Below, piece after piece: positions 4,591 to 25,630 of a stretch of DNA of 41,661 bases. The notes beneath the pieces were generated by a model, which was given only the letters and a program-made list of their open reading frames with translations, did no database searches and was not told the origin of the DNA. This DNA is from Candidatus Jordarchaeia archaeon (GTDB lineage Archaea; Asgardarchaeota; Jordiarchaeia; Jordiarchaeales; Jordiarchaeaceae). Location: positions 1-41,661 of the forward strand of contig JAHQXB010000074.1 in NCBI GenBank assembly GCA_029856435.1. Direction: 5' to 3'. Every line of letters starts with the position of its first letter. Position 1 is the stretch's first letter. Position numbers and translations under genes: made by a program.

Positions 4591-5259
4591 GTGAATGGTT
4601 CAGAAGGGATTGTTGTGGTTAACATTTATCAAGAACTTCGGGAAGCGGTCACAAAAATTGACACAGACAAATTGAGCGAGCTCAAGGAGAAGGTTCTGAA
4701 AACTCCCAACATTGATGTTGATAAACTTGTTGAAAGTATCAGAAGCGGGTTAGAAGAAGTGGGAGTGAAATTCGAATCTGGCGAGTACTACTTGGCGGAG
4801 CTTATTCTAATAGGTACAGAAGTATCTGAGGCGGTGCAAAAATGGAAACCTCTATTTGAAAAAAGGGAAACAGGTAAAAAAATGAAAAAGGCAGTTATTG
4901 GCACTGTGGAAGGAGACATACACGATATCGGCAAAAACATTGTAGGTATGATGCTGGCATCCAGCGGCTTCGAAGTGGTTGATCTAGGTAATGATGTTAC
5001 CCCAGAAAACTTTGTCCAAGCAGTTAGGAAAAACAAGCCGGCAATAGTAGGTATGTCCGCGCTCCTAAGTACAACTCGGGACAACATTAAGAGAACCATA
5101 GACGCCCTGAAGGAAAACCGACTACGAGAAAACGTGAAGATAATAGTAGGAGGAGCAGCTGTAGACGAAGACTTCGCAAAAGCAGCGGGGGCAGATGGAT
5201 TTGCAACCAACGCCGCTGATGCGGTTCCACTGGTTAAAGACCTTTTAGGAGGCATATAA
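4591..5259 (+). CDS. Corrinoid (cobamide-binding) methyl-carrier protein 1, MtaC/MttC-like
   Basis: Four-helix cap followed by GDIHDIGKN (DxHxxG), SALL and VGGA. Exact start is uncertain. Confidence 0.92.
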   Translation: MNGSEGIVVVNIYQELREAVTKIDTDKLSELKEKVLKTPNIDVDKLVESIRSGLEEVGVKFESGEYYLAELILIGTEVSEAVQKWKPLFEKRETGKKMKKAVIGTVEGDIHDIGKNIVGMMLASSGFEVVDLGNDVTPENFVQAVRKNKPAIVGMSALLSTTRDNIKRTIDALKENRLRENVKIIVGGAAVDEDFAKAAGADGFATNAADAVPLVKDLLGGI

Positions 5260-5260
5260 T

Positions 5261-6433
5261 TTGGCAAACCTTTCACCCCGAGAAAGAGTGGAGATGGTTG
5301 TAAACCACGAGGAGCCCGACCGGGTGCCGGTAGATTTTGGTGGAATGAACACCTCCATTTACGAGATGCCCGACTGGTGGCCTAAAAAAGCCCCCTACTT
5401 TGGATATAAAGCCCTGGTGGAGTACCTTGGCCTTAAGGATGTACCCAAACCCTACTTGAACTCTGGGAATTGTGTAATAAATGTGGATGAGAGAATACTT
5501 AATAGGTACGGGGTAGATTTTCAATACCTTTACATGTCCATACCTAAACCTAAAATGCACCCTGATGGAACCATTGAGACCATCTATGGTTTGAAGGTTA
5601 AACCAGTAGGCTACTACCTGGAGGTTTACGATCCACCTCTTTCGGGAAAAATCACCACCAAAGACATAGACAACTTTAAGTGGCCTGACCCCGAGGATCC
5701 CGTATTTTCAGGCAAGGCCAAGGAGCGTGTGCTTAGGATGAGAAAGAGTAGCGATAGGGTAATTGTTGCCCTAGCCTCATTCGCTGAACAGATATTTCAA
5801 AACTATGCTTGGATTCGCGGGTTTACCCAGATGATGCTTGATATGCAGAGAGAACCAGAACTCTTCCACTACCTAACTGACACCTTGCTTGCGGTTGAGG
5901 AGGGAATAATAGAAGCATTCTATTCTGAGGTGGGTGAACACATAGACTTTGCATACATTGCTGAGGATATGGGCACCCAGCAGGCACCTTTCATCTCCCC
6001 AAAACAATACCAAGAATTCTGGAAACCATATCACAAAAGAATGATAAAACACATCAAACAGTTTACCGACGCAAGAATAATGTGGCACTGCTGTGGAGCC
6101 GTTGCACCACTAATTCCACATCTAATCGATCTCGGCGTTGACATACTTCAGGTCATACAGCCTTTAGCTAAAGGAATGGATGCAGAATCTCTAAAAAGAT
6201 CTTTCGGACACAAGTTAACTTTTGATGGAGGCATAGATGTGCAAAGACTTCTACCAAAAGCCAGTCCTGAGGAGATTAAAGCAGAATGCAAAAGAGTAAT
6301 TGAAATTCTAGGCAAGGGCGGCGGATACGTATTTGCACCATCCCATAACATTCAGCCAGACACCCCACCCCAAAACGTGGTAGCTATGCTTGAAGCGGGA
6401 ATTGAATTCGGCAAATATCCCTTAGGAAAATAA
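5261..6433 (+). CDS. URO-D/MtaA-fold corrinoid methyltransferase 1
   Basis: N-terminal PRERV...EEPDRVP, EDMGTQ, HCCG, GGIDVQ and GGGYVFAPSHNIQ. TTG start is 1 nt after the corrinoid gene stop. Confidence 0.88.
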   Translation: MANLSPRERVEMVVNHEEPDRVPVDFGGMNTSIYEMPDWWPKKAPYFGYKALVEYLGLKDVPKPYLNSGNCVINVDERILNRYGVDFQYLYMSIPKPKMHPDGTIETIYGLKVKPVGYYLEVYDPPLSGKITTKDIDNFKWPDPEDPVFSGKAKERVLRMRKSSDRVIVALASFAEQIFQNYAWIRGFTQMMLDMQREPELFHYLTDTLLAVEEGIIEAFYSEVGEHIDFAYIAEDMGTQQAPFISPKQYQEFWKPYHKRMIKHIKQFTDARIMWHCCGAVAPLIPHLIDLGVDILQVIQPLAKGMDAESLKRSFGHKLTFDGGIDVQRLLPKASPEEIKAECKRVIEILGKGGGYVFAPSHNIQPDTPPQNVVAMLEAGIEFGKYPLGK

Positions 6434-6513
6434 CTCCTTTTTAACCCATTTTTCGCGATTTGTGAATCCCTTGGTGGGGTTGTGGAGCTTCTCATCACGA
6501 CACTTCCCCCTTT

Positions 6514-6650
6514 GGCTCTGTTGAAAAAGTTTTATTTTTTTCAATTTCCTTACAGTTTTAATGAATTTTTTGCAATTTTACATTGTTAATTTGAAAAATT
6601 TTCAAAAAACAACCAATTTTTTGAAAAAATTAAAATTATTCAACAGAGCC
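6514..6650 (+). mobile_element. 137-bp MITE-like element, copy B, with ~30-bp terminal inverted repeats and a CTTT target-site duplication
   Basis: Left end GGCTCTGTTGAAAAAGTTTTATTTTTTTCAA versus the reverse complement of the right end GGCTCTGTTGAATAATTTTAATTTTTTCAA gives 28/31 identity. CTTT flanks both sides (6510-6513, 6651-6654). No coding capacity. Confidence 0.8.
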
Positions 6651-6874
6651 CTTTTGGGAGAATGTGGATGCCGAATCGGTATAAACGCCCAAGCATCTCC
6701 AAACCATTTTGAGAAAAGCAAATCGCCAAAATAACTTCCCAGAATCTGCAAAATATCGGTTTTAACTTATCGTAAATGATAAAAGATTCAGGCAGAGATA
6801 AGTCTGCTTGTATATTGTTTGGAACAAATCGATAAAGATATCGAGAAAGGGTTTGAAAACAATAGGTGGTATTT

Positions 6875-7516
6875 ATGTCTTCTAAAGAAGAGTTATTGAA
6901 AAGGATGGTTGATGTTGTCGTAAATCTGAATGTTGAAGAGGCAAAAAAGATTGCGGAAGAGGCGTTAGAGTCAGGCATTTCCCCCCTTGAAGCAATAAAT
7001 GAGGGATTCTCCAAGGGACTTCGAAGGGTTGGGGAGCTCTTTGAAAATAAGGAGTATTTCCTCGCAGACATGATTATGGCCGCTGAGGCCTTTAAGGCGG
7101 GCATGGAGGTATTAACACCCCACATTAAAAAGGGTGGAAAGAAAAAGGGCGTAATAGTTATTGGGACGGTTAAGGATGATATACACGACCTCGGCAAGAA
7201 CATCGTAACAACCCTCCTCTCCTCTGAAGGCTACGAAGTTCACGACCTTGGGATAGATGTTCCCGCGGAGGAGTTCGTAAGAAAAGCCCAAGAAGTTAAA
7301 GCAGATATCGTTGGCCTAAGTGCATTGCTGACAACGACCATGGAACGCATACCTGAGGTAATCGAAGCCTTGAAGGAAGCAGGGCTGGACAAAGTTAAAG
7401 TTATTGTGGGAGGTAGACCCGTTACTCCCGAATTCGCCGAGGAGGTTGGTGCAGATGCCTACTGTGAAGATGCCATAAAAGCATTGAATGTTGTTAAAAA
7501 AATATTGGAGGGCTAG
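6875..7516 (+). CDS. Corrinoid methyl-carrier protein 2
   Basis: DDIHDLGKN, SALL, VGGR. SD AGGTGG at 6864-6869 favours the ATG at 6875. Confidence 0.93.
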   Translation: MSSKEELLKRMVDVVVNLNVEEAKKIAEEALESGISPLEAINEGFSKGLRRVGELFENKEYFLADMIMAAEAFKAGMEVLTPHIKKGGKKKGVIVIGTVKDDIHDLGKNIVTTLLSSEGYEVHDLGIDVPAEEFVRKAQEVKADIVGLSALLTTTMERIPEVIEALKEAGLDKVKVIVGGRPVTPEFAEEVGADAYCEDAIKALNVVKKILEG

Positions 7517-7520
7517 AAGA

Positions 7521-8561
7521 ATGTCGTCGGTTTTAGAACGAGTACTTGTAACCTTAAGCTTCAAGGAACCAGAATGGGTTCCCGTAATTCTCTTTCCCGA
7601 GTGGGATTTTCTAGCTGATCTTTACGGTGTGCCTTTAAAGAAGCTTCTTGAAGATCCAATGTTACAAATCGAGGCGGGTGAAAAAATGAGGCAACGCTTC
7701 CCCGAAGCTTTCATAGCGACATCAGTATGGGTTCCCTATGCTCACGCTTCAGGCTTCGGATGCCAGCTATCTGAACCCGAAGACGAAATTCCGGGTGTTA
7801 AAAAGGTTGCTGTAACTACCCCTGAAGATATCGACTCACTCGAAATTCCCGACCCCCAAAGCGACGGCCTAATGCCTAAGTACCTAGAGTATCTTAAGAT
7901 TCAGCAAAAAGTTAAGGGAAGTTCTGGAATTGGAGACTTTGGACCTGTGGAGCTCGCCTGCGAAATTATGGGTTATACCAATTTCCTTAAACTCATTTCT
8001 CAGAACCCCAAATATGCCCACAAACTCTTAGAAATCACCGTGAAGTCATGCACCAACTGGTTTAACACCCTCATTGATGTTATTGGTGGCTCCGCTCTAT
8101 TTGTGTTGGTGAGTGATCACACAACAGGTTTTCTGAGAGCCAAGCAGTGCCAAGAATTCTTCACACCATACCTGAAAAAGTTTCTGGACAATATTAGAAG
8201 TAAAGTAAGCATTATCCTCTACCACAATGAAAACTACGCGGCACATGTTCTAGATCAGATAGAGCAGATGAAAATCAATATATTCCACTGTGGCGAAATA
8301 GGAGACCTAGAAACAGCAAAGAAAAAAACATATGGAAAGTACACCCTAATGGGCAACATTCACCCTCGAGACGTAATGCTCAAAGGAACGCCAAAACTGG
8401 TTGAAGAAACCTGCAAAGAAGTAATCCAGAAACTGGGACCCGGCGGCGGATTCATACTCTCCACGGGGGGAGGTGTAAGCAGAAATATTCCCCTCCACCA
8501 TGTGGATCTCCTTATAGAATGCGCAAAAAAATACGGGAAATCCCCAATAAAGACAACATAA
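7521..8561 (+). CDS. URO-D/MtaA-fold methyltransferase 2 (non-canonical metal site)
   Basis: KEPEWVPV, LMGNIHPR...KGTP...V...CKEVI and GGGFILSTG. ATG at 7521 lies 4 nt after the corrinoid gene; the track start at 7488 overlaps it. Confidence 0.85.
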   Translation: MSSVLERVLVTLSFKEPEWVPVILFPEWDFLADLYGVPLKKLLEDPMLQIEAGEKMRQRFPEAFIATSVWVPYAHASGFGCQLSEPEDEIPGVKKVAVTTPEDIDSLEIPDPQSDGLMPKYLEYLKIQQKVKGSSGIGDFGPVELACEIMGYTNFLKLISQNPKYAHKLLEITVKSCTNWFNTLIDVIGGSALFVLVSDHTTGFLRAKQCQEFFTPYLKKFLDNIRSKVSIILYHNENYAAHVLDQIEQMKINIFHCGEIGDLETAKKKTYGKYTLMGNIHPRDVMLKGTPKLVEETCKEVIQKLGPGGGFILSTGGGVSRNIPLHHVDLLIECAKKYGKSPIKTT

Positions 8562-8604
8562 AAAAATAACTGAAAAACAGAAAAAAGGCAGCGTACTTTC
8601 TTGG

Positions 8605-9549
8605 TCATATTTTCAGTACTTTCTTGGCGTTCTCTCCCAGTATTAGTCGGGTCTCTTCCCCGCTGAACTTCAAGCCATACCTTTTTCCCTTTTTTGGAAG
8701 GTTTTTAATCCAATTTACCCATTCTTCCAGATTCATCATGGAGTTAGCGTATGGCCAATCGCTGCCAAAAAGTATCCTATTTTTGAAGGGAACAGCAAAG
8801 GTGAGCGGCAAATCCATGAGCATCCTAAGATTATTAAGCAGTAGTTGGGGAGCTCCACATGCCAACATCTGACCCGTGAATGAAATCTCGGTGTGAATAT
8901 TGGACTTAAGAGAGCCTATTTCTGCTAGTATTGGGACTCCGCTTATTCCCCCCATGTGGGCTGCTACTATTCTCAAATCGGGGAAAGCTGTTTGAACATC
9001 GTCAAGATACATTGGATTATTGTATTTAACTTCAAAGGGAATGAAGATTAAGCCGCAGTGGCAGAGTAGGGGAACATCTAACTCTACGCACTTCTTATAG
9101 AGCGGGAAGCAAACTGGATCATTGGGGTAGTAGCCTGCGTCGGGGTGGAACTTGAGTCCCTTCATTCCCCATTCCGTGACGCCCTTTTCAAGCAGTTCAA
9201 CTGCCTTTTCTCCCCTTCTTGGGTCAACTCCCACAAAGGCGATAAGCCTGTCGGGATATTCATCTGCTGCCCTTGCGTGGTACCTATTTTGCTCCTCTAT
9301 TGACATTTTCGCTTTACCCACTTTTAGCTCGAAGTCAACTGGCATAATCACGGCTTTGTCAACTCCTGCTTTATCCATGTCTTCCACAATGGTACTGGCA
9401 TCTTTTTTCCAAAAATCGGGCATCATATCCCTTAGCACCTTCTCCTTGGAGATACCCAGATTTAGGGAGAGAGATTGGGCTATAAGCTCCCAGTAAATGT
9501 CGGGATAAAAATCCTTGTGGCTTAAATGGCAATGCATATCTACTATCAC
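8605..9549 (-). CDS. Amidohydrolase_2-family protein (ACMSD/LigW/LigI-like TIM-barrel metalloenzyme)
   Basis: IVDMHCH, GLKFHP, HCG, AAHMGG, ILFGSDWP, ILGENAKKV. Confidence 0.85.
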   Translation of the reverse strand: MIVDMHCHLSHKDFYPDIYWELIAQSLSLNLGISKEKVLRDMMPDFWKKDASTIVEDMDKAGVDKAVIMPVDFELKVGKAKMSIEEQNRYHARAADEYPDRLIAFVGVDPRRGEKAVELLEKGVTEWGMKGLKFHPDAGYYPNDPVCFPLYKKCVELDVPLLCHCGLIFIPFEVKYNNPMYLDDVQTAFPDLRIVAAHMGGISGVPILAEIGSLKSNIHTEISFTGQMLACGAPQLLLNNLRMLMDLPLTFAVPFKNRILFGSDWPYANSMMNLEEWVNWIKNLPKKGKRYGLKFSGEETRLILGENAKKVLKI

Positions 9550-9681
9550 TAATAGACCTCCTTCATTGAAAATGGTTATTCTAACCCCTCTATGACCGAA
9601 TATGTTATATGTTTGAATGTGGATAATTGGAACATTATTAATTTTCAGTGTTGTATTTTAGGATTTCGGGAGGTTTGAAGT

Positions 9682-10518
9682 ATGAAAATTACCCATGAGG
9701 AAGGAAAATTTGATGGGAAAGGCAAAATAAAACTATACTACCAATTCTGGAAGCCGGAGAAGGTAAAGGCAGTAGTTGTTGCGGCGCATGGTTTGGCTGA
9801 GTACTCGGGTAGATACACTCATGTAGCTGAACACTTCGCCAATGAGGGAATCGCATTCTACGCATTAGATCATAGAGGACACGGGCTCTCTGAAGGTCCA
9901 CGCGGACACATAGATAGTTTCGATGACTACCTAGAAGACTTGGACACCTTCATTGACATGGTTAAAAAAAGTGAAAAGGGGAAAAAGACCATTCTTCTCG
10001 GTCACAGTCTGGGAGGAACAATAGCCATAGCATACGCTCTAAAAAACCCAAAGAAAATAGATTACCTTATTTTGTCATCACCGGCACTAAAACTAGCCAG
10101 CGAGTTAGACCCAGAGCTTATGAAAGCAATATTAGAGCTCTCAAAGAGCAACCCCACCCAGGAGCTACCAAACCAAATAGATCCAAACAACCTCTCACAC
10201 GACAAACAAGTATGCGAAAAGTACGATAAAGACCCCCTAGTTTTTAAAACCATAACAGCCAGATTCGCAGTAGAATTCTTCACCACCATGGAGAATCTTA
10301 GAAAGAACGCAGATAAACTCAAAGTTCCAACCCTACTTCTAGTCGCCGGAGACGACAAACTGGTAAGCCCTGAGGGAAGCAAAGAGTTCGCCAAGAACGT
10401 GAAAGAAAAAGACTTCAAAATGAAAATATATGATGGCTTCTACCACGAACTTTTCAACGAACTAGAAAAAGAAAAAGTTTTCAAAGACATTGACGATTGG
10501 CTGAGAAAGAGAATCTAA
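9682..10518 (+). CDS. Alpha/beta hydrolase, lysophospholipase/monoacylglycerol-lipase family
   Basis: HGLAEYSGRY, DHRGHG, nucleophile elbow GHSLG, triad Asp (GDDKLV) and His (YHELFNE). SD GGAGGT. Confidence 0.92.
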   Translation: MKITHEEGKFDGKGKIKLYYQFWKPEKVKAVVVAAHGLAEYSGRYTHVAEHFANEGIAFYALDHRGHGLSEGPRGHIDSFDDYLEDLDTFIDMVKKSEKGKKTILLGHSLGGTIAIAYALKNPKKIDYLILSSPALKLASELDPELMKAILELSKSNPTQELPNQIDPNNLSHDKQVCEKYDKDPLVFKTITARFAVEFFTTMENLRKNADKLKVPTLLLVAGDDKLVSPEGSKEFAKNVKEKDFKMKIYDGFYHELFNELEKEKVFKDIDDWLRKRI

Positions 10519-10591
10519 ACAAAAATTGTAAGCCCAAAATTTAGAAGCTTTTTTAAACACTTTTTTTTCAATATCCACCTGATATACCTGT

Positions 10592-10928
10592 TTGAAGAAG
10601 TCGAAGCGGCAGGGAAAAGACCTATCCATAGTAAATCATACGCCAGTAATGACCAGCCGCACCCTAGACGTTTTAACTGGAGGGCGCATCTTCTTAAAGT
10701 GTGAGAATTTCCAGCGTATTGGCACCTTCAAGTTTCGAGGGGCCTACAACGCCATAAGTCAATTAACTTCGGAAAAGGCGAAGAGGAGTCACTGCCTACT
10801 CATCCGGCAACCATGCACAAGCTGTAGCCTTGGCCGCAAAACTCTTGGAACGGAAAATAGAGTTATCCCCTATTTTTTTGAATACCTTTGCGTCACCGTT
10901 AAAAATCACATTACTCTATATCTTATGA
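10592..10928 (+). pseudogene. Frameshifted, 3'-truncated PLP-dependent threonine/serine dehydratase (serine racemase family)
   Basis: Frame 1 reads HTPVMTSRTLD...IFLKCENFQRIGTFKFRGAYNA (PLP-Lys motif). After a frameshift near 10785 it reads RGVTAYSSGNHAQAVALAAKLL. Similarity ends ~10850 and a stop follows at 10926-10928. Confidence 0.88.
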
Positions 10929-10974
10929 AGGGTCCAGTGTTCAAAAGGCACTTTTTTCAAGGGTGATTATTAAA

Positions 10975-11940: not shown

Positions 11941-11983
11941 AAATGGCACCGAAAATAAAGGTGTTTTAATCAGAGATAATTTG

Positions 11984-12466: not shown

Positions 12467-12519
12467 CTTTTAGTCAACGATTCCTCGAGTATCTTATTTA
12501 TGAAAGACAAATTTTATAA

Positions 12520-15238: not shown

Positions 15239-16486
15239 ATGTTTAAGGAGGAAGATTTCGTGTCCACCGAAGATGTAGACAAGATGATGAGTGATTATCG
15301 TGAAAAGGTTTTGGCCTCCAGAACACGTTTCCAAAGATTTGTAGATTTCTTTGGTAAAATCCCCATGCCCACCTACTTCATAGTCATGTTTACTGGAGTC
15401 TTTTTAAACGGTTCCAGGCTGAACTCCCTGGATCTACTTCTTAGGTCTCTTGTGGTTCTTAACAGTCCTGACCCTCTAACAGGTTTTCAGCAGAGCATCC
15501 TTATACATCTGTGGTTTATACCTCCCATCCCCGCCGAGTGGAATTCATCCCTCCTAGTTCCAAGTGTGACCAGCGTTTTTGTGGGCTTTACACTATTCAT
15601 AATTTATTTCATTTCTAGGCGTGTAGCATACAAGCAAACGTACTATGTGGACCTAGGTTTCCTAGGGTTCTTTTTGCTGGGTATACTCCTGTTGCTCGCC
15701 TCTCCAAAAATATTTGCAGCACTCTACTACTATTATCCCGCTACTCTGGTATTCCTATTTTTGGCTGCCCCTGCCCTCATATCCATAGTCGCCAGGAAGC
15801 CTTTCACCCTTCAGCACGTTGAGAGAGTTTATCCCCCATCGATTAGGGAGCTTGATATTTACAAAAAAATACACTATCGGGTCGCCACTTTCTTTCTTGT
15901 AGTCTTCATTGTTAATGCTGCAGTTTTCTACTTCAGATTTGTTTTTTCCACCGCTTCACCAGTTTTCACCGTTGTATTCTTCATGGTTTTTTACTTCCTA
16001 ATTCTGGCTTGGGCTTTTATGACTCATTTTCCGGGATGGTACCGCCGAAGAGTACTAAAAACACCCCTAAAAAATCCATCAAATCCCCTCCCCAACAGGG
16101 TAAAAATAGCCGGTGCTCTACTGATAATTTACGGTCAACTAACCTTCATAGTTGGACTTATGCTATCAACCATAACATTCACGGCTTTAGCTTACCTTAT
16201 TGCCATAGCCCTCATAATCTCTGGCTTCGGAGTAATCTTAACTAAAAAGTGGGGCTGGTACCTGACCATAGGCACACTCGCATCACAGATTATCATATTC
16301 TGGTTAGCGTGGGCTTTTACCCCTCACAGTTTAACAGAATGGTTATCCTCAATTGGCACCTTCCTTGCAACCCTCTCATTTTATCCCCCATCAGATGGCC
16401 TCCTAAGCCTCTCCCTAATATTTACCGTAATTTCTTCAGTGTTCCTTTGCTATATGTTCCCAAAAAGAAACTATTACCTCCTTTAA
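15239..16486 (+). CDS. Polytopic membrane protein of unknown function (~10 TM segments)
   Basis: Long uninterrupted ORF with many hydrophobic segments. The segment RKPFTLQH...P...I...FF...NA recalls uncharacterised IspA-like membrane proteins (weak). Confidence 0.7.
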   Translation: MFKEEDFVSTEDVDKMMSDYREKVLASRTRFQRFVDFFGKIPMPTYFIVMFTGVFLNGSRLNSLDLLLRSLVVLNSPDPLTGFQQSILIHLWFIPPIPAEWNSSLLVPSVTSVFVGFTLFIIYFISRRVAYKQTYYVDLGFLGFFLLGILLLLASPKIFAALYYYYPATLVFLFLAAPALISIVARKPFTLQHVERVYPPSIRELDIYKKIHYRVATFFLVVFIVNAAVFYFRFVFSTASPVFTVVFFMVFYFLILAWAFMTHFPGWYRRRVLKTPLKNPSNPLPNRVKIAGALLIIYGQLTFIVGLMLSTITFTALAYLIAIALIISGFGVILTKKWGWYLTIGTLASQIIIFWLAWAFTPHSLTEWLSSIGTFLATLSFYPPSDGLLSLSLIFTVISSVFLCYMFPKRNYYLL

Positions 16487-16617
16487 CTTTTTATTGGAGC
16501 TTTGAACAGAATCGATGCCAATAGGTTAGTGAAGATTTTTAACCTTATTTGTGATTGTTTAAATACGCTCTTTCGGTCTGTTAAATTAGAACTTTGGGTC
16601 TTTTGGAGGTGTTTTAT

Positions 16618-17751
16618 TTGCCTTTAAGGATGCATGAAAACGAGACTATGACTCCTAGGGAGAGAATGGAAACTGTTTTAAATCTACGTGAACCCGACCG
16701 TGTCCCTATTATAGCTTCCTTTCACGCGGCTCAGGCTAGGTTGACTGGGATGACCATAGAGGAATTTTTCTTCAATGTGCCAAAATCCTATGAGGCCACA
16801 AAGAAGGTTTGGGAAATGTTTGGTGGCTTTGATGTGTACACGGGATGCTCCCCCATCCTTGGTTACTATCTTCCCTGGCCTAATTCTCACAGCATGGTTT
16901 ATTTTGACTGGACTCTTCCAAAGGGTAATGTTCCTGAGCAGATGCATGAGAAGGAGCTTATGAAGCGTAGTGACTATGATCTTGTAATTGAGAAGGGTTT
17001 CGCTCCCTTTAAGAGAAGACCGGAATTAGAGAAGGACTTCATGAATTATGTGGCGCAGTTCGCAGCATTGGACACTAACAAATGGCTTGAGGAGATGGAT
17101 GTTCCATCCCTTTTTGTTGGAGCCATAGAGCCCCCAGTAGATATTATATCTTTTCTGAGAAGCTTTAACAAGTATCTTATAGATGTTGTGGAGATTCCCG
17201 ATAAGGTTGTAGAGGCCTGTGAGGCTACAGTGGACGAAATGCTTGCCACCCTAGACGTACAAATCCAGTTTCTGAGCGGTGAAAAAGGTCCAAAAGCAGT
17301 TCTCTACGGATTTTCGCGGGTGGCTTCAAGTTTTATTTCCCGCAAAAAATTTGAACTATTCTGGCCCCACCTCAAAAGAATCGCGGAAGCCATCATAGAT
17401 AAGGGGTGTATTGTACAGTTCCACCTAGATAATGATTACACAGATTTTCTAGAATACTTCACAGAACTTCCGAAGGGTAAAACATGGTTCCACCTAGACC
17501 AAACAGACATATTCAAAGCCAAAGAAATCCTTGGAGATAGAGCGTGCCTAATGGGAAATATTCCTCCCCAGATAACAGGCTTAGGCTCACCTAAGGAAGT
17601 AGAAGCCTACTGTAGAAAACAGATAGAAGGTTGCATGGAAGGCGGAGGCTACATACTTTGCTCTTCATGTGTGCTTCCCGACGATGTTCCCGCCGCAAAT
17701 ATTAAAGCCATGAAGGACGCTGTAATGAAATACGGCTTCTACCGCGCCTAA
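16618..17751 (+). CDS. URO-D/MtaA-fold methyltransferase 3
   Basis: MTPRERM...EPDRVP, FHLDND, LMGNIPP...GSPKEV...C, GGGYILCSSC. SD GGAGGTG (16605-16611) favours the TTG at 16618. Confidence 0.87.
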   Translation: MPLRMHENETMTPRERMETVLNLREPDRVPIIASFHAAQARLTGMTIEEFFFNVPKSYEATKKVWEMFGGFDVYTGCSPILGYYLPWPNSHSMVYFDWTLPKGNVPEQMHEKELMKRSDYDLVIEKGFAPFKRRPELEKDFMNYVAQFAALDTNKWLEEMDVPSLFVGAIEPPVDIISFLRSFNKYLIDVVEIPDKVVEACEATVDEMLATLDVQIQFLSGEKGPKAVLYGFSRVASSFISRKKFELFWPHLKRIAEAIIDKGCIVQFHLDNDYTDFLEYFTELPKGKTWFHLDQTDIFKAKEILGDRACLMGNIPPQITGLGSPKEVEAYCRKQIEGCMEGGGYILCSSCVLPDDVPAANIKAMKDAVMKYGFYRA

Positions 17752-17795
17752 TCCCAAAACTATCTCCAGACAAAGTACTAGTTCTATTTTGGAGT

Positions 17796-18524
17796 GTGTA
17801 TGTGTTGCTTTATCGTGATTCCGTCTCAAAAGCCCAGAAGCTATATTACGATATGATTCTGGAATCTGGTTTTCCAATAAAGGGGCTGAAACCGGAAGAC
17901 TTGGAAGTGGTTGACTTCGGTCTAAGCCAGGGGGAACTGGACTACTTTAAAAGAGTGGGTCTTGGAATATACGTGCTAGTAAACGAGGCCGAATGTGGGA
18001 AAATTTTGTGCTTCCTTCCAAACCAGTACATGCCAGAACACCGCCACCAATCAGTGGTGGTTATGCCCAAAGGCTCCAAAATTATGAAGGGCTACATCGA
18101 TTTAAAGAAACTTGTGAAAGACTTTAAGGGTCTAAAAGAATTTGGGGAAGAGGCCGTCTACATGGTGCCCGAAAAGGAGAACACCCCTATTCCCAAAAAG
18201 GGTATTCTCATCCCCGGCAAACAGGAATACTTCCACACCATAAAGGGCACTGGCTCAATGTTTGTACCCGGAAAACCCACCGACAAACCCACCTATCCCA
18301 TACCTGAAGAGCATTGTCCTCACACTACCGCACTACACGAAGTCTTCCTAGAGCCGGGCGTGGGATTCCATCTGGCCGCCAACACTCCACACAGTGTAGT
18401 TGCGGGACCTGAGGGCCTAATAGTCATTGAGTTCTCCTTGAAAAGCAGAGATCCTCTAGACATATTTACGAATCCCAAAATAGACAGAATCACCCACATA
18501 AAGGAACGCTCAAAAATGACGTGA
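17796..18524 (+). CDS. D-lyxose/D-mannose ketol-isomerase family cupin with a ~50-aa insertion
   Basis: PNQYMPEHRH...GKQEYF...HEVFLEPG...NTPH...AGPEG.IV.EFS..S.D..DIFTNPKI follows the lyxose-isomerase pattern (His-x-His, Glu, His metal ligands). Confidence 0.82.
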   Translation: MYVLLYRDSVSKAQKLYYDMILESGFPIKGLKPEDLEVVDFGLSQGELDYFKRVGLGIYVLVNEAECGKILCFLPNQYMPEHRHQSVVVMPKGSKIMKGYIDLKKLVKDFKGLKEFGEEAVYMVPEKENTPIPKKGILIPGKQEYFHTIKGTGSMFVPGKPTDKPTYPIPEEHCPHTTALHEVFLEPGVGFHLAANTPHSVVAGPEGLIVIEFSLKSRDPLDIFTNPKIDRITHIKERSKMT

Positions 18525-21220
18525 GAGGGAGGATAACTGTGAAAAGAAGGAACGAATCCATTCTTGTTTCTCATACTCACTGGGATAGAGAATGGTACAA
18601 ACCTTTCCAAACTTTTCGAGGATACATGGTGGAAATGATTGACTGCTTAATAGACCTGATGGAAAAAAATCCTGACTATAAACACTTTTTGCTGGATGGT
18701 CAATCCATTCTTCTTGAAGACTACTTTGAGGTGCGACCCGAGAATAAGGAACGTATACGCGCTCTTGTCAGTTCGGGCCGCTTAAGTGTTGGCCCCTTTT
18801 ACGTTCTGCCAGACATGTTTTTGGTCTCCGCTGAATCTATTGTGCGGAACTTGCTTCTGGGCATAATGACTGCCGAAGAGTGTGGAGGGTCTCAAAAAAT
18901 AGGTTATCAGCCGGATTGTTTTGGGCAAATTGCTCAAACTCCTCAAATAATGAAGGGATTTGCCTTTAAGGGATTCGTTTTCTGGAGAGGTTTGGGAGAT
19001 GAGATTGACTTTCTTCCAACAACTTTTCTTTGGGAAGCTCCCAGTGGAGACCGCATACTTACTCACCAGATTGCAATTGGCTACTTTAATGTAGGCGACC
19101 TCCCCCAAGATACAGATGCTGCTATTACACTAATTGAAAAAACAAAAGTTATGCTTCAGGAAAGAAGCAACAGAAACTTCCACCTGTTTCTTAATGGTCA
19201 TGACCATGCTTTTCCCCAAAGAAACGTGCCCCAAATCATAAACGCCTACAATGAGAAACATCCCAATGACCCAATAAGGCATGGAAGTTTGCAAGACTTT
19301 TTCAATCAGCTTGAAGAAAACACCCATAACCTACCCGTGTACAGGGGAGAGTTCAGGGGAGCACGCATGTTTCCTGTTTTACCCGGAGTTCTATCCTCCC
19401 GCATATACTTGAAACAGGCAAATCATAGATGCCAAACAAAATTGGAGAACTATGCGGAGCCATTCTCCGCCTGGGCTTGGACCCTTGGAGAAAACTATGA
19501 TAGGAGTTACCTGTGGCTAGCTTGGAAGTGGCTTCTTGAAAATCACCCCCACGACAGTATTTGCGGATGCTCCATTGACCAAGTTCATAGAGAGATGGAA
19601 ACCCGTTTCGCTTGGAGTGAACAGATAGCTGACCTACTCACACTAAAAGCAATGGAGCGTATAGCGTCAAAAGCAACAGTTTCGGGTGAGGGATTCCCCA
19701 TAGCGGTCTTCAATCCCTCCCCTTGGAAAAGAACTGGAGTGGTGGAATTCCTCTCAGAGCCTTTTCCACCATTCACCTTTAACAGCCAGCAATTCACCTT
19801 CAACCCCTCCCTCGTCAAGAGCCTAGATTTCAAGCCGGACCGCAACTTTTGCATAGTGGATCAGGAGGATGGGAGAACTCTTCCCGTGGAAGTATTTGAA
19901 GAACCAGAGAGTTATGCCTTCCGATTTTTCGAGAATATGACCCGCTACACCCTAAGGTTTCTTGCCACAGATGTTCCCGCCTGCGGATACAAAGTACTGT
20001 ACGTAAAAGAAGGGAAGGCAGAAACTGCAAATTCACCTCTCAAACTCGATGTTGGGAAGAGAACGATTGAGAATGAATATTTAAGAGTTAAGCTTAACCC
20101 GAATGGCACAATGGACGTAACAGAACTATCAAGTGGCGTTACATTCACTGGACTACACATATTCGAGGATGTGGGTGATAATGGTGACGAGTACAATTAC
20201 TCCCAACTCAAGGAAGACGAGATTATTACCAGCGAACATGTTAATGCTGAAATTTCATTTGAAGAACACCCCGCAAGATTGGACGCAATAGTGAAGATGG
20301 AAATGCTTCTCCCAAAAAGTTTAGAGGAGGGGAACCGTAATCGCCGCTCCCGCGAAAGGATACCCCTAAGAATAACTTCAATAATATCTCTCTTTCCCGG
20401 CTCCAGATTTGTTAACTGCAAAACAGAAATCGAAAACGTCGCCAAGGATCACCGTCTAAGAGTACTCTTCCCTACGAGTATAGAGTCTGATGTTGTCTAT
20501 GCTGATGGCCACTTTGGAGTGGTTGAGAGAAGCTTGAAACTCCCGGACGACACAAACTGGATAGAAGTGCAAACTACAGCGAACCACCAAAACCTCTTCG
20601 TAGACATAAATAACGGAAAAAAGGGCCTAGCCATAGCAAATAAGGGACTCCCCGAATACGAAATCTATGGAGAAAACGAGAGAACCATAGCCATAACCCT
20701 TGTACGCTCAGTAGGCTGGCTATCAAGAAACATGGATCATAATAACCGCAGAATCTTCGGAGGCCCAGCAATACCCACACCAGAAGCCCAATGCCAGGGT
20801 CGCCTCACAGTGGAATATGCAGTAATACCCCACCCCGGAGACTGGGAGGAAGCGATGATTCCCAGAATAGCCAGAGAATTCACCTGCGACTTAAGGGCGG
20901 TAGAAGTCAAAAACCCCCTACACAAGCTACCCGCCTCCACAAGCTTTCTAGAAGTTGAACCCCCCTCAATAATTCTCTCCGCGGTTAAAAAAGCCGAAAA
21001 GGAGGAGGTCCTCATCATCCGCATATACAACACTGGAAAAAAACAGCAAAACGCGACACTCACCCTCAGTAAACCAGTGAAGTCAGCTAAAATAATCAAC
21101 CTCGCAGAGAATGAAATAAGGGAGGAGGCTTCAATTTCAATAAAAGAAAACAAAATCAAAGTAGAATGTATCCCAGCAGCAAAAATTGTAACATTAAAAA
21201 TCAACACCGCAGACCAATAA
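18521..21220 (+). CDS. Glycoside hydrolase family 38 (alpha-mannosidase / mannosylglycerate hydrolase-like)
   Basis: SHTHWDREWY, FLLDGQ, PDCFG, GHDH, HPHDSICGCS, VFNP, NKGLPEYE, PTPEAQC. Start overlaps the isomerase stop (GTGA). Confidence 0.93.
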   Translation: MRGRITVKRRNESILVSHTHWDREWYKPFQTFRGYMVEMIDCLIDLMEKNPDYKHFLLDGQSILLEDYFEVRPENKERIRALVSSGRLSVGPFYVLPDMFLVSAESIVRNLLLGIMTAEECGGSQKIGYQPDCFGQIAQTPQIMKGFAFKGFVFWRGLGDEIDFLPTTFLWEAPSGDRILTHQIAIGYFNVGDLPQDTDAAITLIEKTKVMLQERSNRNFHLFLNGHDHAFPQRNVPQIINAYNEKHPNDPIRHGSLQDFFNQLEENTHNLPVYRGEFRGARMFPVLPGVLSSRIYLKQANHRCQTKLENYAEPFSAWAWTLGENYDRSYLWLAWKWLLENHPHDSICGCSIDQVHREMETRFAWSEQIADLLTLKAMERIASKATVSGEGFPIAVFNPSPWKRTGVVEFLSEPFPPFTFNSQQFTFNPSLVKSLDFKPDRNFCIVDQEDGRTLPVEVFEEPESYAFRFFENMTRYTLRFLATDVPACGYKVLYVKEGKAETANSPLKLDVGKRTIENEYLRVKLNPNGTMDVTELSSGVTFTGLHIFEDVGDNGDEYNYSQLKEDEIITSEHVNAEISFEEHPARLDAIVKMEMLLPKSLEEGNRNRRSRERIPLRITSIISLFPGSRFVNCKTEIENVAKDHRLRVLFPTSIESDVVYADGHFGVVERSLKLPDDTNWIEVQTTANHQNLFVDINNGKKGLAIANKGLPEYEIYGENERTIAITLVRSVGWLSRNMDHNNRRIFGGPAIPTPEAQCQGRLTVEYAVIPHPGDWEEAMIPRIAREFTCDLRAVEVKNPLHKLPASTSFLEVEPPSIILSAVKKAEKEEVLIIRIYNTGKKQQNATLTLSKPVKSAKIINLAENEIREEASISIKENKIKVECIPAAKIVTLKINTADQ

Positions 21221-21616
21221 ACTCTTTAAACTTGCACTGAGCACCACTTCAATACATTAATGGCTGATAACTGGAAAACAAAGTTATATCACCTAACCAA
21301 AACTCAATTTTTGAATTATCCCCTTAGGGTTTAATCACAAGATAGGAGCCAAGATGAAAAAAAGTAAAAAGATGATGCTTCTTACTTCGGTGATGTAGAA
21401 TCGTTCGGTTTCGCCTCAAAAAGGGGTGTTTATAGGGCTTCTTTCACGATTTGGAGCCTTATTAGGGAGATGGAGCCGAATAAATCTGCATCACCTTCTT
21501 ACTTCCATGATAATTGTTTTGAATAAGAGGCATGATTTCTGCATTAGGTTGCTTCTTCCGGCTATTAAGGCAGTTTATTCCTTCTCATCCCGTATTGTGA
21601 ACTTTTTATTCATTTT

Positions 21617-22663
21617 TTAGTCAAGTTGTATGGGGTATTTTCCGTATTCTCTGGCTGCTTCCATGAAGGCCCTCAGATTTTCGAGGGGAGTATCTGGTGG
21701 TACTTCGCATCCTGTGGCAAGCATGTACATTCCACCTGGAGCCGCTTGACGTATGCATTCCTTAACAGCTTGTTTCACATCTTGTGGTGTGCCCTCCAAC
21801 ATGACTTTGACTGGATCTACGTTTCCCACAAGAACCACTCTGCCTGCAATCTTCTTCTTAGCTTCTGCAAGGTTGACTGGGGCGTCTATGCTGAGCATTG
21901 CGGGGCCCAACTCGACGAGCTTGTCTATAAGATGGTTTACGTCGCCACATACGTGCAATGCGCAGAATTTTCCCTCCGCCGCCCAAGTTTTGATTACCTT
22001 TTTTAAGGCGGGGGCTGCAAACTTGTCGAACTGTTTAGGTGAAAGAGTACCTGCCACAGGATCTCCGAGGTTTAGTCCCAATTTCACCTCGGCTTGTGCC
22101 CTTCCTTCCTCAATGGCGAAGTCTGTGGTTATATCAAGCATTTCCTGCACGTAGTCTGGGTTCTGTACAAGGTCTTTGTAAAAATTTTCTGGTCCCCTCA
22201 GCGCTGTGAGAAGAGAGACGGGGCCTGCGACCAGTCCGCCTACGCCTGCAACTTTTCTCAGCTCGTTGGTTACTATTTCGCCGGCTTTGAGGATGTTAGG
22301 CAGCCTGCCGTCTTTTCTTGGGTCAGGCATGCGTATATTTTTAACGTCTTTTTTCAAATCTTTTACTGGAAAGTCTACTGCCTCGGGGAGCCTATCCTCA
22401 TGGAATTTTATTTTGCAGCCAAAAGCTTCGGCCTCGACGAGGGTGTCTCCTAGGACAAGTACTACGTCTGGGGTGTATAGTTTGTATGCCTTAACAATGG
22501 CGTGGGCCATTGTTTCGGGGTCGGTTATAAACTCTTTTATGGGTACTCCTGCAAGTCTCGCGTTTCCCGCTCCCACAGAGGGGTAAGCTGGAACCCTATC
22601 TGGTTCCTGTCTGAGGAAAACTCTCTTCATTCTCTCTCTTACGGTTAACTCCTCACCAGACAT
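21617..22663 (-). CDS. MtaA/CmuA-family methylcobamide methyltransferase 4 (canonical Zn site)
   Basis: EPDRVP, EAEAFG, GDPVA, LHVCG, GNVDP, ATGCEVP (His-x-Cys...Cys). Confidence 0.92.
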   Translation of the reverse strand: MSGEELTVRERMKRVFLRQEPDRVPAYPSVGAGNARLAGVPIKEFITDPETMAHAIVKAYKLYTPDVVLVLGDTLVEAEAFGCKIKFHEDRLPEAVDFPVKDLKKDVKNIRMPDPRKDGRLPNILKAGEIVTNELRKVAGVGGLVAGPVSLLTALRGPENFYKDLVQNPDYVQEMLDITTDFAIEEGRAQAEVKLGLNLGDPVAGTLSPKQFDKFAAPALKKVIKTWAAEGKFCALHVCGDVNHLIDKLVELGPAMLSIDAPVNLAEAKKKIAGRVVLVGNVDPVKVMLEGTPQDVKQAVKECIRQAAPGGMYMLATGCEVPPDTPLENLRAFMEAAREYGKYPIQLD

Positions 22664-22693
22664 GATTTAACCTCCAAAATCTCGCGTCTTTTT

Positions 22694-23332
22694 TTATCCT
22701 AAGAGCTCTTTAGCCTTTTGGACTGCTTCCCGTGCGTCTTTTCCGTAGGCGTCGGCGCCGATTTTTTCAGCGAAATCTTGTGAGGTGGCGGCTCCCCCTA
22801 TTAGTATTTTAACACTTTCTCGTAGTCCCTCATTATCTAGAGCTTTTATGGTGTTAATCATCTCCGCCCTCGCTGACGAGATGATACCGGACATGGCTAA
22901 AATGTCTGGGTTATGCTTCTTAACATTCTCTACGAAGGTTTCTGGGGGAACGTTTTCACCAATGTCAATTACCTCAAATCCGGCTGCCTGTAACATTATT
23001 TTAACTATGTTTTTTCCTATGGTGTGTATATCTGTATAAGCGGTGCCAAGTAACACCTTGCCGTGGCCGCTCGTTCTTCTCTCCTTTAGGTGTGGCTCCA
23101 GTATCTCCAAAGCTGCAGACATGGTTTCAGCTGACATTAGGACATCAGAAATAAAGTATTCCTTGTTACCAAACTTTTCCCCGACAACTTCTATGCCCTT
23201 CATTAATCCCTTAGTTAGGGCATCATATGCATCTATTCCTTGCTCTAAAGCCTCTTTTGCGGCTTCCTTCACGAGATCCACGTTAGCCTCTATTACTGCG
23301 GTTGAAAGCTTTTCAAAAATTCTCTCAGCCAT
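22694..23332 (-). CDS. Corrinoid methyl-carrier protein 3
   Basis: TDIHTIGKN, SGII, IGGA. It sits 30 bp upstream of methyltransferase 4. Confidence 0.93.
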   Translation of the reverse strand: MAERIFEKLSTAVIEANVDLVKEAAKEALEQGIDAYDALTKGLMKGIEVVGEKFGNKEYFISDVLMSAETMSAALEILEPHLKERRTSGHGKVLLGTAYTDIHTIGKNIVKIMLQAAGFEVIDIGENVPPETFVENVKKHNPDILAMSGIISSARAEMINTIKALDNEGLRESVKILIGGAATSQDFAEKIGADAYGKDAREAVQKAKELLG

Positions 23333-23458
23333 TTGCAGTCCACCTTCTGACGCGAGTATTATCCGTTAATTGTACTTTTATCTCTACTACTCAACATTAT
23401 AAACTTTTGTCAAAAAAATGGTATGAGTCGTAAAACCGAAATAATTAGTTTTTAAGCT

Positions 23459-24889
23459 TTAAAGGAGCCCTTCCATCTTGTACCACTCCTCAGCTGCTTT
23501 GGACATAACTTCCCTGTGGTCTACTAGTTCTCCGCCTGCGTCTTGGAGAATTCTTTGAAACATCATGTCTGCTATGTCCCGGTTTTCCTCCACAATGTTT
23601 TGGGTCTGGTTTGGATCCTTTCTTAAATCGTAAAGGTATTCCCTGCTCCTAGAATAATTCGCTATATACACGAATTCTCTATCTTTTGTCCAGACATAAC
23701 CGTTGAAACCAGAGGTTGCGTAGCTCCGAGCCTCCCGCTCCCCCTCTATTAGAGACCAGAGCTCTTCTCCATCTAATGGTGTGGGGGGCTCTATTCCAAG
23801 GAAGGTTAAAATGGTGGGTACTATGTCGTGATTGTATACGAAACCTGAAACACGTTTACCACTCTTAAATCCTTGGGGGTGGCGAATGAAAAGCGGTATG
23901 TCCACTAACTCGGGATAGAGGCCTCTTGGAATCTTACCTATTAAGTTATGCTCACCCAACTGATGTCCATGATCAGATGTCAGTACCACCAGTGATTTAT
24001 CTAGCAGTTCCAGCTCCCTCATTTTTTCTAAAAATTTTCCAAGCCATACATCCACCATTGTGATTTCGCCCCCGTAGAGTGCCTTCATGTATTTTAACTC
24101 TTCGGGTGTGAGATAATCAATACTCGTTGAGTAGTTGGGTGTTATGACTTCTCTGCCAGTGTAGGGTGGATGGTAGAGGTCTCGGTATTTTTGGGGTGGA
24201 TCCCAGGGTTCATGGGGGTCAAATGAATCAATAAAAAGGAAAAATTTCTCAACATCTTTGTTTTCTTCTATCCACTTGGCTGCGGCGCTAAATACTTGGG
24301 GCGCGAAGTAGTCCTCCTCTTTTCGTCGTTCTGCAATGTTTTTGAGGTACTGTGGGAGTATTGTCATTATGTGGTCACATTTTCCGCTCTGTGGTATGTA
24401 GCGTTCTAACTGTTTGGAGTCAATTTTGGGTGCGGTTTTGTAAGGGTCTGCTTCTTGGCCTCTTATCAACTGCCACTGATGGTATCCTCGATGAAAATTC
24501 ATGCTCGGCTTGAAGTAGTGGTAAGTGTCCGTTATAAAGGCTGTGATGTAACCGTTTCTGCGTAGAATCTCCGCAATTGTGTTTTGAGAGTCGGGAATAG
24601 GTTGCCATCCATAAGCTTGAACCATATCTCCCTTGCAGGGATGGTATTCCTTGAAGGGGAAGGTGCGGATTCCCGTATGTATAGACCTTCTGAAGGGAAT
24701 TGTTGGAAGAGATTCGGGGTGCGCGTCTTCAAATATGATGCTTTCTCCGGCTAAGGCGTCTAGGTTAGGGGTTTTAATCCAACTGTTTCCATATATTCCT
24801 AGGTGATCCTTTCTCAGTGTATCTAGGAGGATTACTACGACATTCAAGCCCTTCACACCAACTTGGGGAGAATAATTTGTTCTATCCAA
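23459..24889 (-). CDS. Sulfatase-family (alkaline phosphatase superfamily) hydrolase with Thr at the formylglycine position
   Basis: LLDTLRKD, TPNLD, PTIPFR (T-x-P-x-R), DPHEPW, SDHG, DIVPTIL, YLYDLRKDP.Q..N. Confidence 0.88.
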   Translation of the reverse strand: MDRTNYSPQVGVKGLNVVVILLDTLRKDHLGIYGNSWIKTPNLDALAGESIIFEDAHPESLPTIPFRRSIHTGIRTFPFKEYHPCKGDMVQAYGWQPIPDSQNTIAEILRRNGYITAFITDTYHYFKPSMNFHRGYHQWQLIRGQEADPYKTAPKIDSKQLERYIPQSGKCDHIMTILPQYLKNIAERRKEEDYFAPQVFSAAAKWIEENKDVEKFFLFIDSFDPHEPWDPPQKYRDLYHPPYTGREVITPNYSTSIDYLTPEELKYMKALYGGEITMVDVWLGKFLEKMRELELLDKSLVVLTSDHGHQLGEHNLIGKIPRGLYPELVDIPLFIRHPQGFKSGKRVSGFVYNHDIVPTILTFLGIEPPTPLDGEELWSLIEGEREARSYATSGFNGYVWTKDREFVYIANYSRSREYLYDLRKDPNQTQNIVEENRDIADMMFQRILQDAGGELVDHREVMSKAAEEWYKMEGLL

Positions 24890-25000
24890 ATTCCGATGAT
24901 TAAACTAAGCCACTAATTATGGGAGCAATACTTTAATCTAATCTGTTTAAAAATATATTTTCATTAAAAACTAATCTTTTGACACTAAAAGGTGAATATT

Positions 25001-25630
25001 ATGGCTGATCTGCTTGTTGAAGCTATGGCTAATCTTGATAGGAACGCCGTACTGGATAATGTGGAAAAGGAGATTAAGAGGGGTACAGACCCCCTAAAAA
25101 TAATAGAAAGCCTCTCTCAAGGACTAAAAATTGTGGGTGATCTTTACGATAAAAAAGAATATTTTCTAGCGGAGCTGATAACCGCTGGAGACGTTTTTCA
25201 AAACGCTTTTCAAAAAATAAAACCAGCATTGGAGAAAAAGGGCCTTAGAACCCAGGTCAGAGGAAAAATAGTCATTGGAACGGTGCGCGGAGACCTACAC
25301 GACATTGGAAAAAACATTGTCACTACCATGCTTGTTTCCTCTGGCTTCTACGTGGAAGACTTGGGAGTCGACGTACCAGCAGAAAAGTTCATAGAAGCAA
25401 TAAAGAAAACAGACGCAAACATTCTAGCTATGTCAGCCCTCCTCACAGTAGCACTAGAGGCCGCAAAAGAAACAATAAAACTGCTGGAAAAAGAAAACCT
25501 CAGAAACAGAGTAAAAGTGATCTGCGGGGGCGCAGCCTTCGACGAAAACACCGCCAAAAGAATCGGAGCCGACGCTTACGGGAAAGACCCTCTAGATGCA
25601 GTAAAAATCTGCCAAAAACTCCTCCGGTAA
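25001..25630 (+). CDS. Corrinoid methyl-carrier protein 4
   Basis: GDLHDIGKN, SALL, CGGA. SD AGGTGA (24990-24995) favours the ATG at 25001. Confidence 0.93.
   Translation: MADLLVEAMANLDRNAVLDNVEKEIKRGTDPLKIIESLSQGLKIVGDLYDKKEYFLAELITAGDVFQNAFQKIKPALEKKGLRTQVRGKIVIGTVRGDLHDIGKNIVTTMLVSSGFYVEDLGVDVPAEKFIEAIKKTDANILAMSALLTVALEAAKETIKLLEKENLRNRVKVICGGAAFDENTAKRIGADAYGKDPLDAVKICQKLLR

Follow-up and report, generated by a model that had tools for sequence, protein, structure and literature searches.

Divergent UroD-fold methyltransferases clustered with corrinoid proteins in a Jordarchaeia genome

Described corrinoid systems and the Jordarchaeia locus

In the MtoABCD system of the archaea Methermicoccus shengliensis and Archaeoglobus fulgidus (PMC8630106, PMC8359953), MtoB, a substrate-specific methyltransferase (MTI) of the uroporphyrinogen decarboxylase (UroD) fold, works with MtoC, a corrinoid protein (CP) of the MtaC type, with MtoA, an MtrH-like methyltransferase II (MTII) that delivers the methyl group to tetrahydromethanopterin (H4MPT), and with MtoD, a RamA-like activase (PMC8630106). 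Arrays of UroD-fold MTIs and CPs are well known from acetogens: Acetobacterium dehalogenans has 26 methyltransferase systems, and for two zinc-free enzymes, CdmB and MtvB, catalysis as MTIs has been proven; homologues of CdmB in Asgardarchaeota have already been recorded (PMC13222342). Bathyarchaeia have been reported with a methyltransferase system acting on lignin-derived aromatics (10.1101/2022.10.23.513425). Jordarchaeia and Freyarchaeia have been proposed, from their MttB, MtbC, MtrH, and coenzyme M (CoM) genes, to be non-methanogenic methylotrophs (acetogens) that feed the Wood-Ljungdahl pathway (PMC9723677, PMC11291895). The UroD repertoire of this class seems undiscussed, in that term searches found no “MtaA” in either article and no “uroporphyrinogen” in PMC11291895. 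Here we describe four CPs and four UroD-fold methyltransferases (MTs), numbered CP1 to CP4 and MT1 to MT4, from a Candidatus Jordarchaeia archaeon. The window is the entire 41.7-kb contig C67 (JAHQXB010000074.1) of a 3.54-Mb metagenome-assembled genome that is 97.8% complete (GCA_029856435.1, hereafter G000) and whose proteins have their closest database matches under the names Candidatus Jordarchaeum and Freyarchaeota.

All four CPs, probably of the MtaC type, and all four URO-D proteins, as recognized by Pfam among the window’s open reading frames (ORFs), lie inside 21 kb. This agrees with a preliminary description of the same DNA, which had counted four corrinoid genes with a DxHxxG motif and four URO-D genes there, and a motif check gave the same result. 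As that description had also noted, three tight pairs are present; the CP always precedes the MT, and the gaps amount to 1 bp (CP1/MT1), 4 bp (CP2/MT2, with the MT2 start at position 7521), and 30 bp (CP3/MT4). MT3 and CP4 are unpaired, with 7 kb between them. The clustering exceeds chance: counting each cassette as one unit, 5 of the 19 methyl-transfer units of the genome fall within 21 kb, which was matched by 2 of 20,000 random placements. Since pairwise identity is low both among the MTs (22 to 30%) and among the CPs (38 to 45%), the array did not arise from local duplication, and local tandem duplication is likewise ruled out by the tree described below.

We consider it moderately probable that the three CP-MT cassettes, together with a split MT3/CP4 pair, are part of an expanded non-methanogenic corrinoid methyl-transfer repertoire in which each MT is an MTI. 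The donor, in which the methyl group is bound to O, S, or a halogen, would be demethylated by the UroD-fold enzyme, which would load the Co(I) of its own CP. From there, H4MPT or folate would receive the methyl group through MtrH-type methyltransferases that the cassettes share and that other contigs encode, and the Wood-Ljungdahl pathway would take it up; RamA-type activators, shared as well, would repair oxidized cobalt, Co(II). In this scheme, we infer which way the methyl groups flow, which donors are used, that MtrH and RamA are shared, and that MT3 pairs with CP4, whereas the gene identities, motifs, selection, phyletic pattern, synteny, and genome inventory are observed.

The preliminary description had proposed a search of the rest of the genome for a corrinoid activator, a second methyltransferase, mcr, and CoM genes. 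The resulting inventory comprises 14 URO-D genes, about 13 small corrinoid proteins, three RamA-type activases (contigs C160, C29, and C48), and four to five MtrH homologues, of which four are intact (C160, C79, C48, and C95, the last being a 511-aa MtrA-MtrH-like fusion). CdhC and ComA are present as well, and neither McrA nor MtaB was found in the genome. The MTII and the RamA activase that a three-component system requires are thus available genome-wide, neither of them inside the window: no MtaB, MttB, MtmB, RamA, MtrH, or pterin-binding domain was found among the window ORFs scanned, which were 100 aa or longer, in line with what had been described. Three MttB-like genes and one MtmB-like gene (on C28, beside a CP) lie outside the window, and the earlier statement that the array is wired to hydrolases “instead of known MT1 enzymes” was therefore too strong. 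FwdB, whose proximity had been pointed out, is encoded in the window at positions 29426 to 30793 and matches TIGR03129 with 531 bits (cut-off, 328 bits). Given these partners elsewhere in the genome, with CdhC, FwdB, MtrH, and RamA all present, the Wood-Ljungdahl destination proposed in the preliminary description is reasonable, and it fits the published proposals. Scans of the window with Rfam and for tRNAs revealed no RNA elements.

At C28:15657-17679 (L041), a CP gene overlaps the MtmB-like gene mentioned above, which matches PF05369 with an E value of 4e-83. Since the MtmB-like gene is a single, uninterrupted ORF of 460 aa, the predicted homologue seems to be independent of pyrrolysine.

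Compared with MtoABCD, the four protein families of that system also occur in this genome; the hosts are archaeal in both cases, and A. fulgidus is non-methanogenic as well. Because the same families (UroD MTI, CP, MtrH, and RamA) are present and McrA was not found, an Mto- or Cdm-like route into the Wood-Ljungdahl pathway fits. However, the parts do not form one operon here, with MtrH and RamA on other contigs; only MT3 can be placed, and distantly so, in the MtoB/CdmB wing; and no MFS transporter or regulator was recognized. The type 1 mlp cluster (MGC) offers a further parallel, with many divergent UroD MTs that have their own CPs, a shared activase and MTII, and mostly uncharacterized clades, but it differs from the present case in that the host here is archaeal and the acceptor is of the H4MPT/MtrH type. 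Identity of the array as a type 1 mlp cluster (Mlp2, Mlp3, CP, and RACE) was rejected, as no RACE gene is found in the cluster.

The four methyltransferases and their corrinoid proteins

The four MTs all pass the Pfam PF01208 (URO-D) cut-off of 23.9 bits and, judged by sequence, are members of four deep UroD clades, none of which is HemE. The preliminary description had considered that all four might cluster with genuine HemE decarboxylases. HemE identity was rejected with the equivalog model TIGR01464, on which MT4 reached 91, MT2 55, and MT1 40 bits vs. a cut-off of 303 bits; MT3 gave no match at an E value of ≤1e-5. None of the MTs reaches any NCBIfam equivalog cut-off, and MT1 to MT3 score at most 87 bits on models of the MtaA/CmuA family. 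The 14 genomic UroD paralogues and their homologues were placed in a maximum-likelihood tree, in which MT1 clusters with homologues from Asgard archaea, MT2 stands by itself on a long branch, MT3 falls inside a CdmB-like superclade (support, 100/100), and MT4 belongs to an MtaA-like group. For the characterized MtaA, MtbA, MtsA, CmuA, OdmB, VdmB, MtoB, and MtvB, the tree is anchored by proxies only, namely, NCBIfam equivalog scores, phmmer hits to PDB entries (4AY7, 9RUI, and HemE), the CdmB orthologue encoded in G000, and a protein from JGI with a score above the PRK06252 cut-off.

MT1 (5261-6433, forward strand; URO-D, 3e-28, 99 bits) features an HxC...H triad (reading H-C-C...H in MT1 itself) formed by H276, C278, and H362, in which His-x-Cys...His replaces the His-x-Cys...Cys of MtaA. 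The family numbers 765 or more proteins, which come from Asgard archaea, Anaerolineae, Caldatribacteriaceae, and Desulfosarcina, among others, and conservation of the three residues in it is 90% or higher. The AF2 model of MT1 (pLDDT, 95) takes the form of a UroD barrel, and its best fold match in the PDB is MtaA (4AY7). A second MT1 paralogue, 55 to 57% identical, occurs in genomes of the same genus (G004:C184, G001:C571, and G003:C13), and none is found in G000.

MT2 (7521-8561, forward strand) matches URO-D over its full length (1e-43, 150 bits); its ORF opens at position 7488, and the start at 7521 is backed by the closest homologue. Its lineage is sparse, with 58 representatives at an E value of ≤1e-30 among 1.8 billion proteins. 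The family is zinc-less and retains only the histidine of the HxC motif. With only this histidine kept, MT2 recalls CdmB and MtvB, which function in the absence of zinc (PMC13222342).

MT3 (16594-17751, forward strand; URO-D, 83 bits) likewise lacks the zinc triad, as does CdmB, and probably belongs to the CdmB/MtoB wing of O-demethylase and dehalogenase MTIs; it is a member of a subfamily found throughout the Asgard archaea. Its C-terminal half (220 aa, residues 162 to 383), and only this part, matches CdmB of the CdmBCA chloromethane system of A. dehalogenans (PDB 9RUI; PMC13222342) with an E value of 2.5e-27. In contrast, MT3 shows no recognizable likeness to the N-terminal channel-forming extensions of CdmB, and the true CdmB orthologue of this genome is another gene, located at C83:36045-37703 (L028:8046-9704). 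The latter encodes a protein of 420 aa that aligns with 9RUI over the full length (E value, 8e-88); it adjoins a CP gene that is cut at the contig end, and an MtrH fragment lies close by.

MT4 (21617-22663, reverse strand; URO-D, 5.6e-74, 250 bits) is the only one of the four with the MtaA-type His-x-Cys...Cys zinc triad. It aligns over its full length with MtaA from Methanosarcina mazei (PDB 4AY7; E value, 2e-32), with the zinc ligands aligned in the motifs LHVCGD and ATGCE, and its homologues P0002 to P0006 are 84 to 88% identical. Besides these ligands, the presence of ComA recalls MtaA, MtbA, and MtsA of Methanosarcina, and CP3-MT4 is similar to the two-gene methylthiol system MtsA/MtsB, with no separate MtaB-like MTI. 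Unlike those enzymes, MT4 stays below every NCBIfam cut-off (202 vs. 244 bits for PRK06252, 189 vs. 235 for TIGR01463, 175 vs. 400 for MtaA_Meth, and 144 vs. 600 for MtbA) and is confined to a single genus, and there to a few species, in a genome in which McrA and MtaB were not found. MT4/CP3 would probably handle a thiol-linked methyl group in the manner of MtsA/MtsB; alternatively, it might pass the methyl group on to CoM.

Each of the four CPs consists of the Pfam domains B12-binding_2 and B12-binding and contains one DxHxxG motif. CP1 (4591-5259, forward strand; DIHDIG at residue 109) and CP2 (6866-7516, forward strand; DIHDLG) are the partners of MT1 and MT2, respectively; CP3 (22694-23332, reverse strand; DIHTIG) lies upstream of MT4 in the same orientation; and CP4 (24992-25630, forward strand; DLHDIG) has no adjoining MT. 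Their scores on TIGR02370, the model for CPs of the MtaC/MtbC type (162, 211.5, 196, and 180 bits for CP1 to CP4), are all under the cut-off of 215.3 bits. For the CPs that adjoin MT3-like genes in three distant Asgard genomes (G131, G149, and G031), CP4 is the best match in the window, with 44 to 46% identity, and CP4 may be the partner of MT3, in which case the two would constitute a split fourth pair.

Taken by their sequences, MT1 to MT4 are plausibly substrate-specific methyltransferases that load the CPs adjoining them, and since their active sites differ in make-up, the four enzymes most likely act on different donors. The opposite direction of flow was also weighed. There, the pairs would take over the methyl group from a CP loaded by MttB- or MtmB-like enzymes and transfer it to CoM or another thiol, from which MtrAH would pass it to H4MPT. 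Such a role agrees with the closeness of MT4 to MtaA and its intact zinc triad, with ComA being present and McrA not found, with the MtrA-MtrH-like fusion on C95, and with published proposals (PMC9723677, PMC11291895), the MtrAH route to H4MPT being that of Sun et al. for Jordarchaeia. Nevertheless, we regard it as unlikely for the array, as the thiol-activating triad is confined to MT4 and missing from MT2 and MT3, MT3 groups with the MTI-type CdmB and MtoB, every MT has a dedicated CP as is typical of MTI-CP pairs, and even MT4 fails the equivalog and subfamily cut-offs of MtaA and MtbA.

Cassette gain and loss next to a hydrolase backbone

We compared the window at the DNA and protein levels with five congeners (G001 to G005, of which G005 is a complete genome) and with a sister family from the same order. 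The window aligns collinearly with G001, G003, and G004, to which its nucleotide identity is about 90%. In G005, the gene order is ACAD, THUMP, Amidohydro_2, Hydrolase_4, CbiX, PepM28, alkylsulfatase, three membrane ORFs, MT3, isomerase, GH38, sulfatase, CP4, ACAD, FeS, and FwdB, with 84 bp at the site of CP1-MT1-CP2-MT2 and 169 bp at the site of MT4-CP3. No orthologues of MT1, MT2, or MT4 are found anywhere in G005 (the best match to MT1 is 28% identical, and MT2 and MT4 have none at an E value of ≤1e-45), and CP3, which is 99% identical in G003, is missing from the GH38-sulfatase gap of G005. G002 holds the first block (CP1-MT1-CP2-MT2), and no MT4 orthologue was found in it (best match, 36%). 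Thus, orthologues of MT1 and MT2 occur only in G001 to G004 and those of MT4 only in G001, G003, and G004. Given that the G005 backbone is collinear without the cassettes and that G002 lacks MT4, the three tight pairs are, on this synteny, accessory cassettes that were gained by or lost from a hydrolase backbone existing without them. These modules would have accreted in a variable region and come and gone within the genus. In line with the comparison, URO-D genes number at least 14 to 15 in G000 to G004, 7 in G005, and 3 to 5 in the sister family.

Alone among the four MTs, MT3 is conserved across the order, with orthologues of 72 to 97% identity (72 to 73% in the sister family). Its neighbors in the sister family are a thiolase, a diphthamide synthase, a C_GCAxxG protein, and DUF169. 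CP4 is kept beside the sulfatase across the whole genus.

For G000 and the congener G003, we also computed the ratio of nonsynonymous to synonymous substitution rates (dN/dS) of seven MT and CP genes, leaving out CP1, whose copy in G003 is on another contig. The ratios were 0.021 for MT2, 0.021 for CP3, 0.023 for MT4, 0.036 for MT1, 0.058 for CP2, 0.067 for MT3, and 0.110 for CP4, on the whole lower than those of the flanking hydrolases (0.03 to 0.15). By this measure, the MT and CP genes are functional and under strong purifying selection. Their dS values are similar to those of the flanking genes (regional dS, 0.26 to 0.50), and because dS of the cassettes equals that of the flanking genes, a recent transfer of MT4-CP3 between the species of G000 and G003 was rejected.

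The preliminary description had placed the array in one integrated pathway, in which the neighboring hydrolases (amidohydrolases, an alpha/beta hydrolase, a peptidase, sulfatases, and GH38) would free methylated monomers from complex organics and the adjoining CP/MT pairs would demethylate these. Hydrolases are indeed dense among the non-MT genes between 2.3 and 25.6 kb, and MT3 is followed, with operon-like spacing, by a lyxose/mannose-isomerase-like cupin (17796-18524, forward strand; Atlas score of 0.95 to Lyx_isomer clusters) and a GH38 alpha-mannosidase (18521-21220, forward strand; Pfam GH38 domains). The gap between MT3 and the isomerase gene measures 44 bp, the isomerase and GH38 genes overlap by 4 bp, and the arrangement, which is compatible with a single transcript, is retained in G005. 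Two further loci of G000 add to this. At C86:5501-8744 (L040), a small ORF, a CP gene, and a GH3 glycosidase gene follow each other beside two UroD genes, the CP and GH3 genes being separated by 8 bp. This linkage extends across the genus: G005 and G002 share the three genes, even though in G005 the two UroD genes lie 9 kb off. On C52, an alpha/beta hydrolase gene comes 27 bp after an MT gene.

However, the comparison with relatives makes the integrated pathway distinctly unlikely. The hydrolase backbone of G005 is intact without CP1-MT1-CP2-MT2 and MT4-CP3, G002 has no MT4 orthologue, and in the sister family MT3, at 72% identity, has unrelated neighbors, with GH38 not found in any of the five genomes. 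It is in this genus alone that MT3 adjoins the isomerase-GH38 pair. In three other Asgard families, no MT, CP, or isomerase gene flanks the GH38 homologues, and the GH3 homologues of Asgard families beyond this genus likewise lack a neighboring CP. Moreover, the hydrolases are functionally mixed, and they make up just 3 of 20 sampled neighbors of the other genomic CP/MT units. Random shuffling of the hydrolases among relatives, which the preliminary description had named as evidence against its own proposal, is largely what is seen. In distant Asgard genomes, an MT1-like gene (in G021) and MT3-like genes (in G131, G149, and G031) have one type of neighbor in common with the window, a directly upstream CP, and this CP-MT adjacency alone recurs in other Asgard archaea. 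The adjacency to hydrolases thus appears to be positional and does not define a pathway.

A narrower version of such coupling would be a genus-specific recruitment of corrinoid units to glycan catabolism, i.e., the anaerobic demethylation of O-methylated (possibly sulfated) sugars or of methoxy-aryl glycosides. It is tempting to speculate along these lines from the array of membrane protein, MT3, isomerase, GH38, sulfatase-fold protein, and CP4 and from the CP-GH3 arrangement near two UroD genes on C86, although this idea is a long shot. No corrinoid-dependent sugar O-demethylase was met in the literature searched, with searches that were not aimed at that question. Highly improbable, finally, is a role of some pairs of a CP and a zinc-less UroD protein as modules that sense the B12 state and regulate instead of serving catabolism, which would suit the missing metal ligands of MT2, given that no kinase, PAS, GGDEF, or other signaling gene lies beside any of the four units and that the equally zinc-less CdmB and MtvB are proven catalysts (PMC13222342).

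Several points weigh against a repertoire of MTIs with dedicated CPs as set out above. The MtrH and RamA genes are on other contigs, and their use by the cassettes is assumed. Transfer from methylated CP to CoM is an equally good role for MT4, which would then be a second methyltransferase running in the opposite direction. The tree of the CPs is star-like (support, 63/43) and does not settle the MT3-CP4 pairing. In addition, five units in 21 kb call for a common cause, which “accretion in a variable region” merely names; co-regulation or a shared class of substrates could be that cause. Lastly, the 8-bp spacing of CP and GH3 on C86 and the 27-bp spacing of MT and hydrolase on C52 make a coupling to hydrolases conceivable for some cassettes.

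What is new here is a class-level UroD inventory, the pattern of cassette gain and loss, and two uncharacterized enzyme families, those of MT1 and MT2. Together, they suggest that the substrate range of these archaea may be tuned by the gain and loss of small CP-MT cassettes, and the tempting model of a joint hydrolase-demethylase pathway loses support. The rare lineage of MT2 and the HxC...H family of MT1, the latter with hundreds of members in Asgard archaea, Chloroflexota, Atribacterota-like, and other anaerobes, are flagged as candidates for novel methyl donors in anoxic sediments.

Neighboring genes and repeats

The list of genes interleaved with the array that the preliminary description had given stands as a whole, with small corrections. 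The Amidohydro_1 neighbor resembles deaminases of the TRZ/ATZ type, the supposed “lipase” belongs to the alpha/beta hydrolases (Hydrolase_4), and the isomerase-like cupin and a PALP remnant are to be added. The cupin and GH38 look like a mannoside-utilization (sugar-catabolic) pair. The remnant is a 124-codon ORF (10592-10966) that abuts galT; its first ~65 residues resemble PALP/threonine dehydratase, after which the similarity is lost, and it is probably a truncated PALP gene.

Directly upstream of MT3, a polytopic membrane protein is encoded (15239-16486, forward strand) that features about nine hydrophobic segments in a hydropathy analysis and has no family match in Pfam, NCBIfam, or Atlas. 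The corresponding ORF is present in two tandem copies in G003 and in three in G005. From its predicted topology, the protein may be a transporter.

Two repeats resembling miniature inverted-repeat transposable elements sit in intergenic gaps beside the cassettes, and both are numerous in G001, G003, and G004. Repeat A (6514-6651, ~138 bp, self-inverted) was inserted between MT1 and CP2; dozens of copies exist in G000 and its congeners, and the MT1-CP2 gap of G002 measures only ~49 bp. Repeat B (21389-21495, ~107 bp) lies between GH38 and the MT4-CP3 cassette and has about 100 blastn matches in G000, those listed being 95 to 100% identical, and many in the congeners.

Farther along the window, positions 32124 to 35287 encode two HGD-D subunits and a BcrAD/BadFG activator ATPase, a set of the 2-hydroxyacyl-CoA-dehydratase radical enzyme type, which is followed by a class III aminotransferase. 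Close to the end of the contig (40130-41584), a RuBisCO-like protein is encoded that has an N-terminal extension of ~70 residues and best matches the MtnW-type enolase (367 bits; cut-off, 409 bits).

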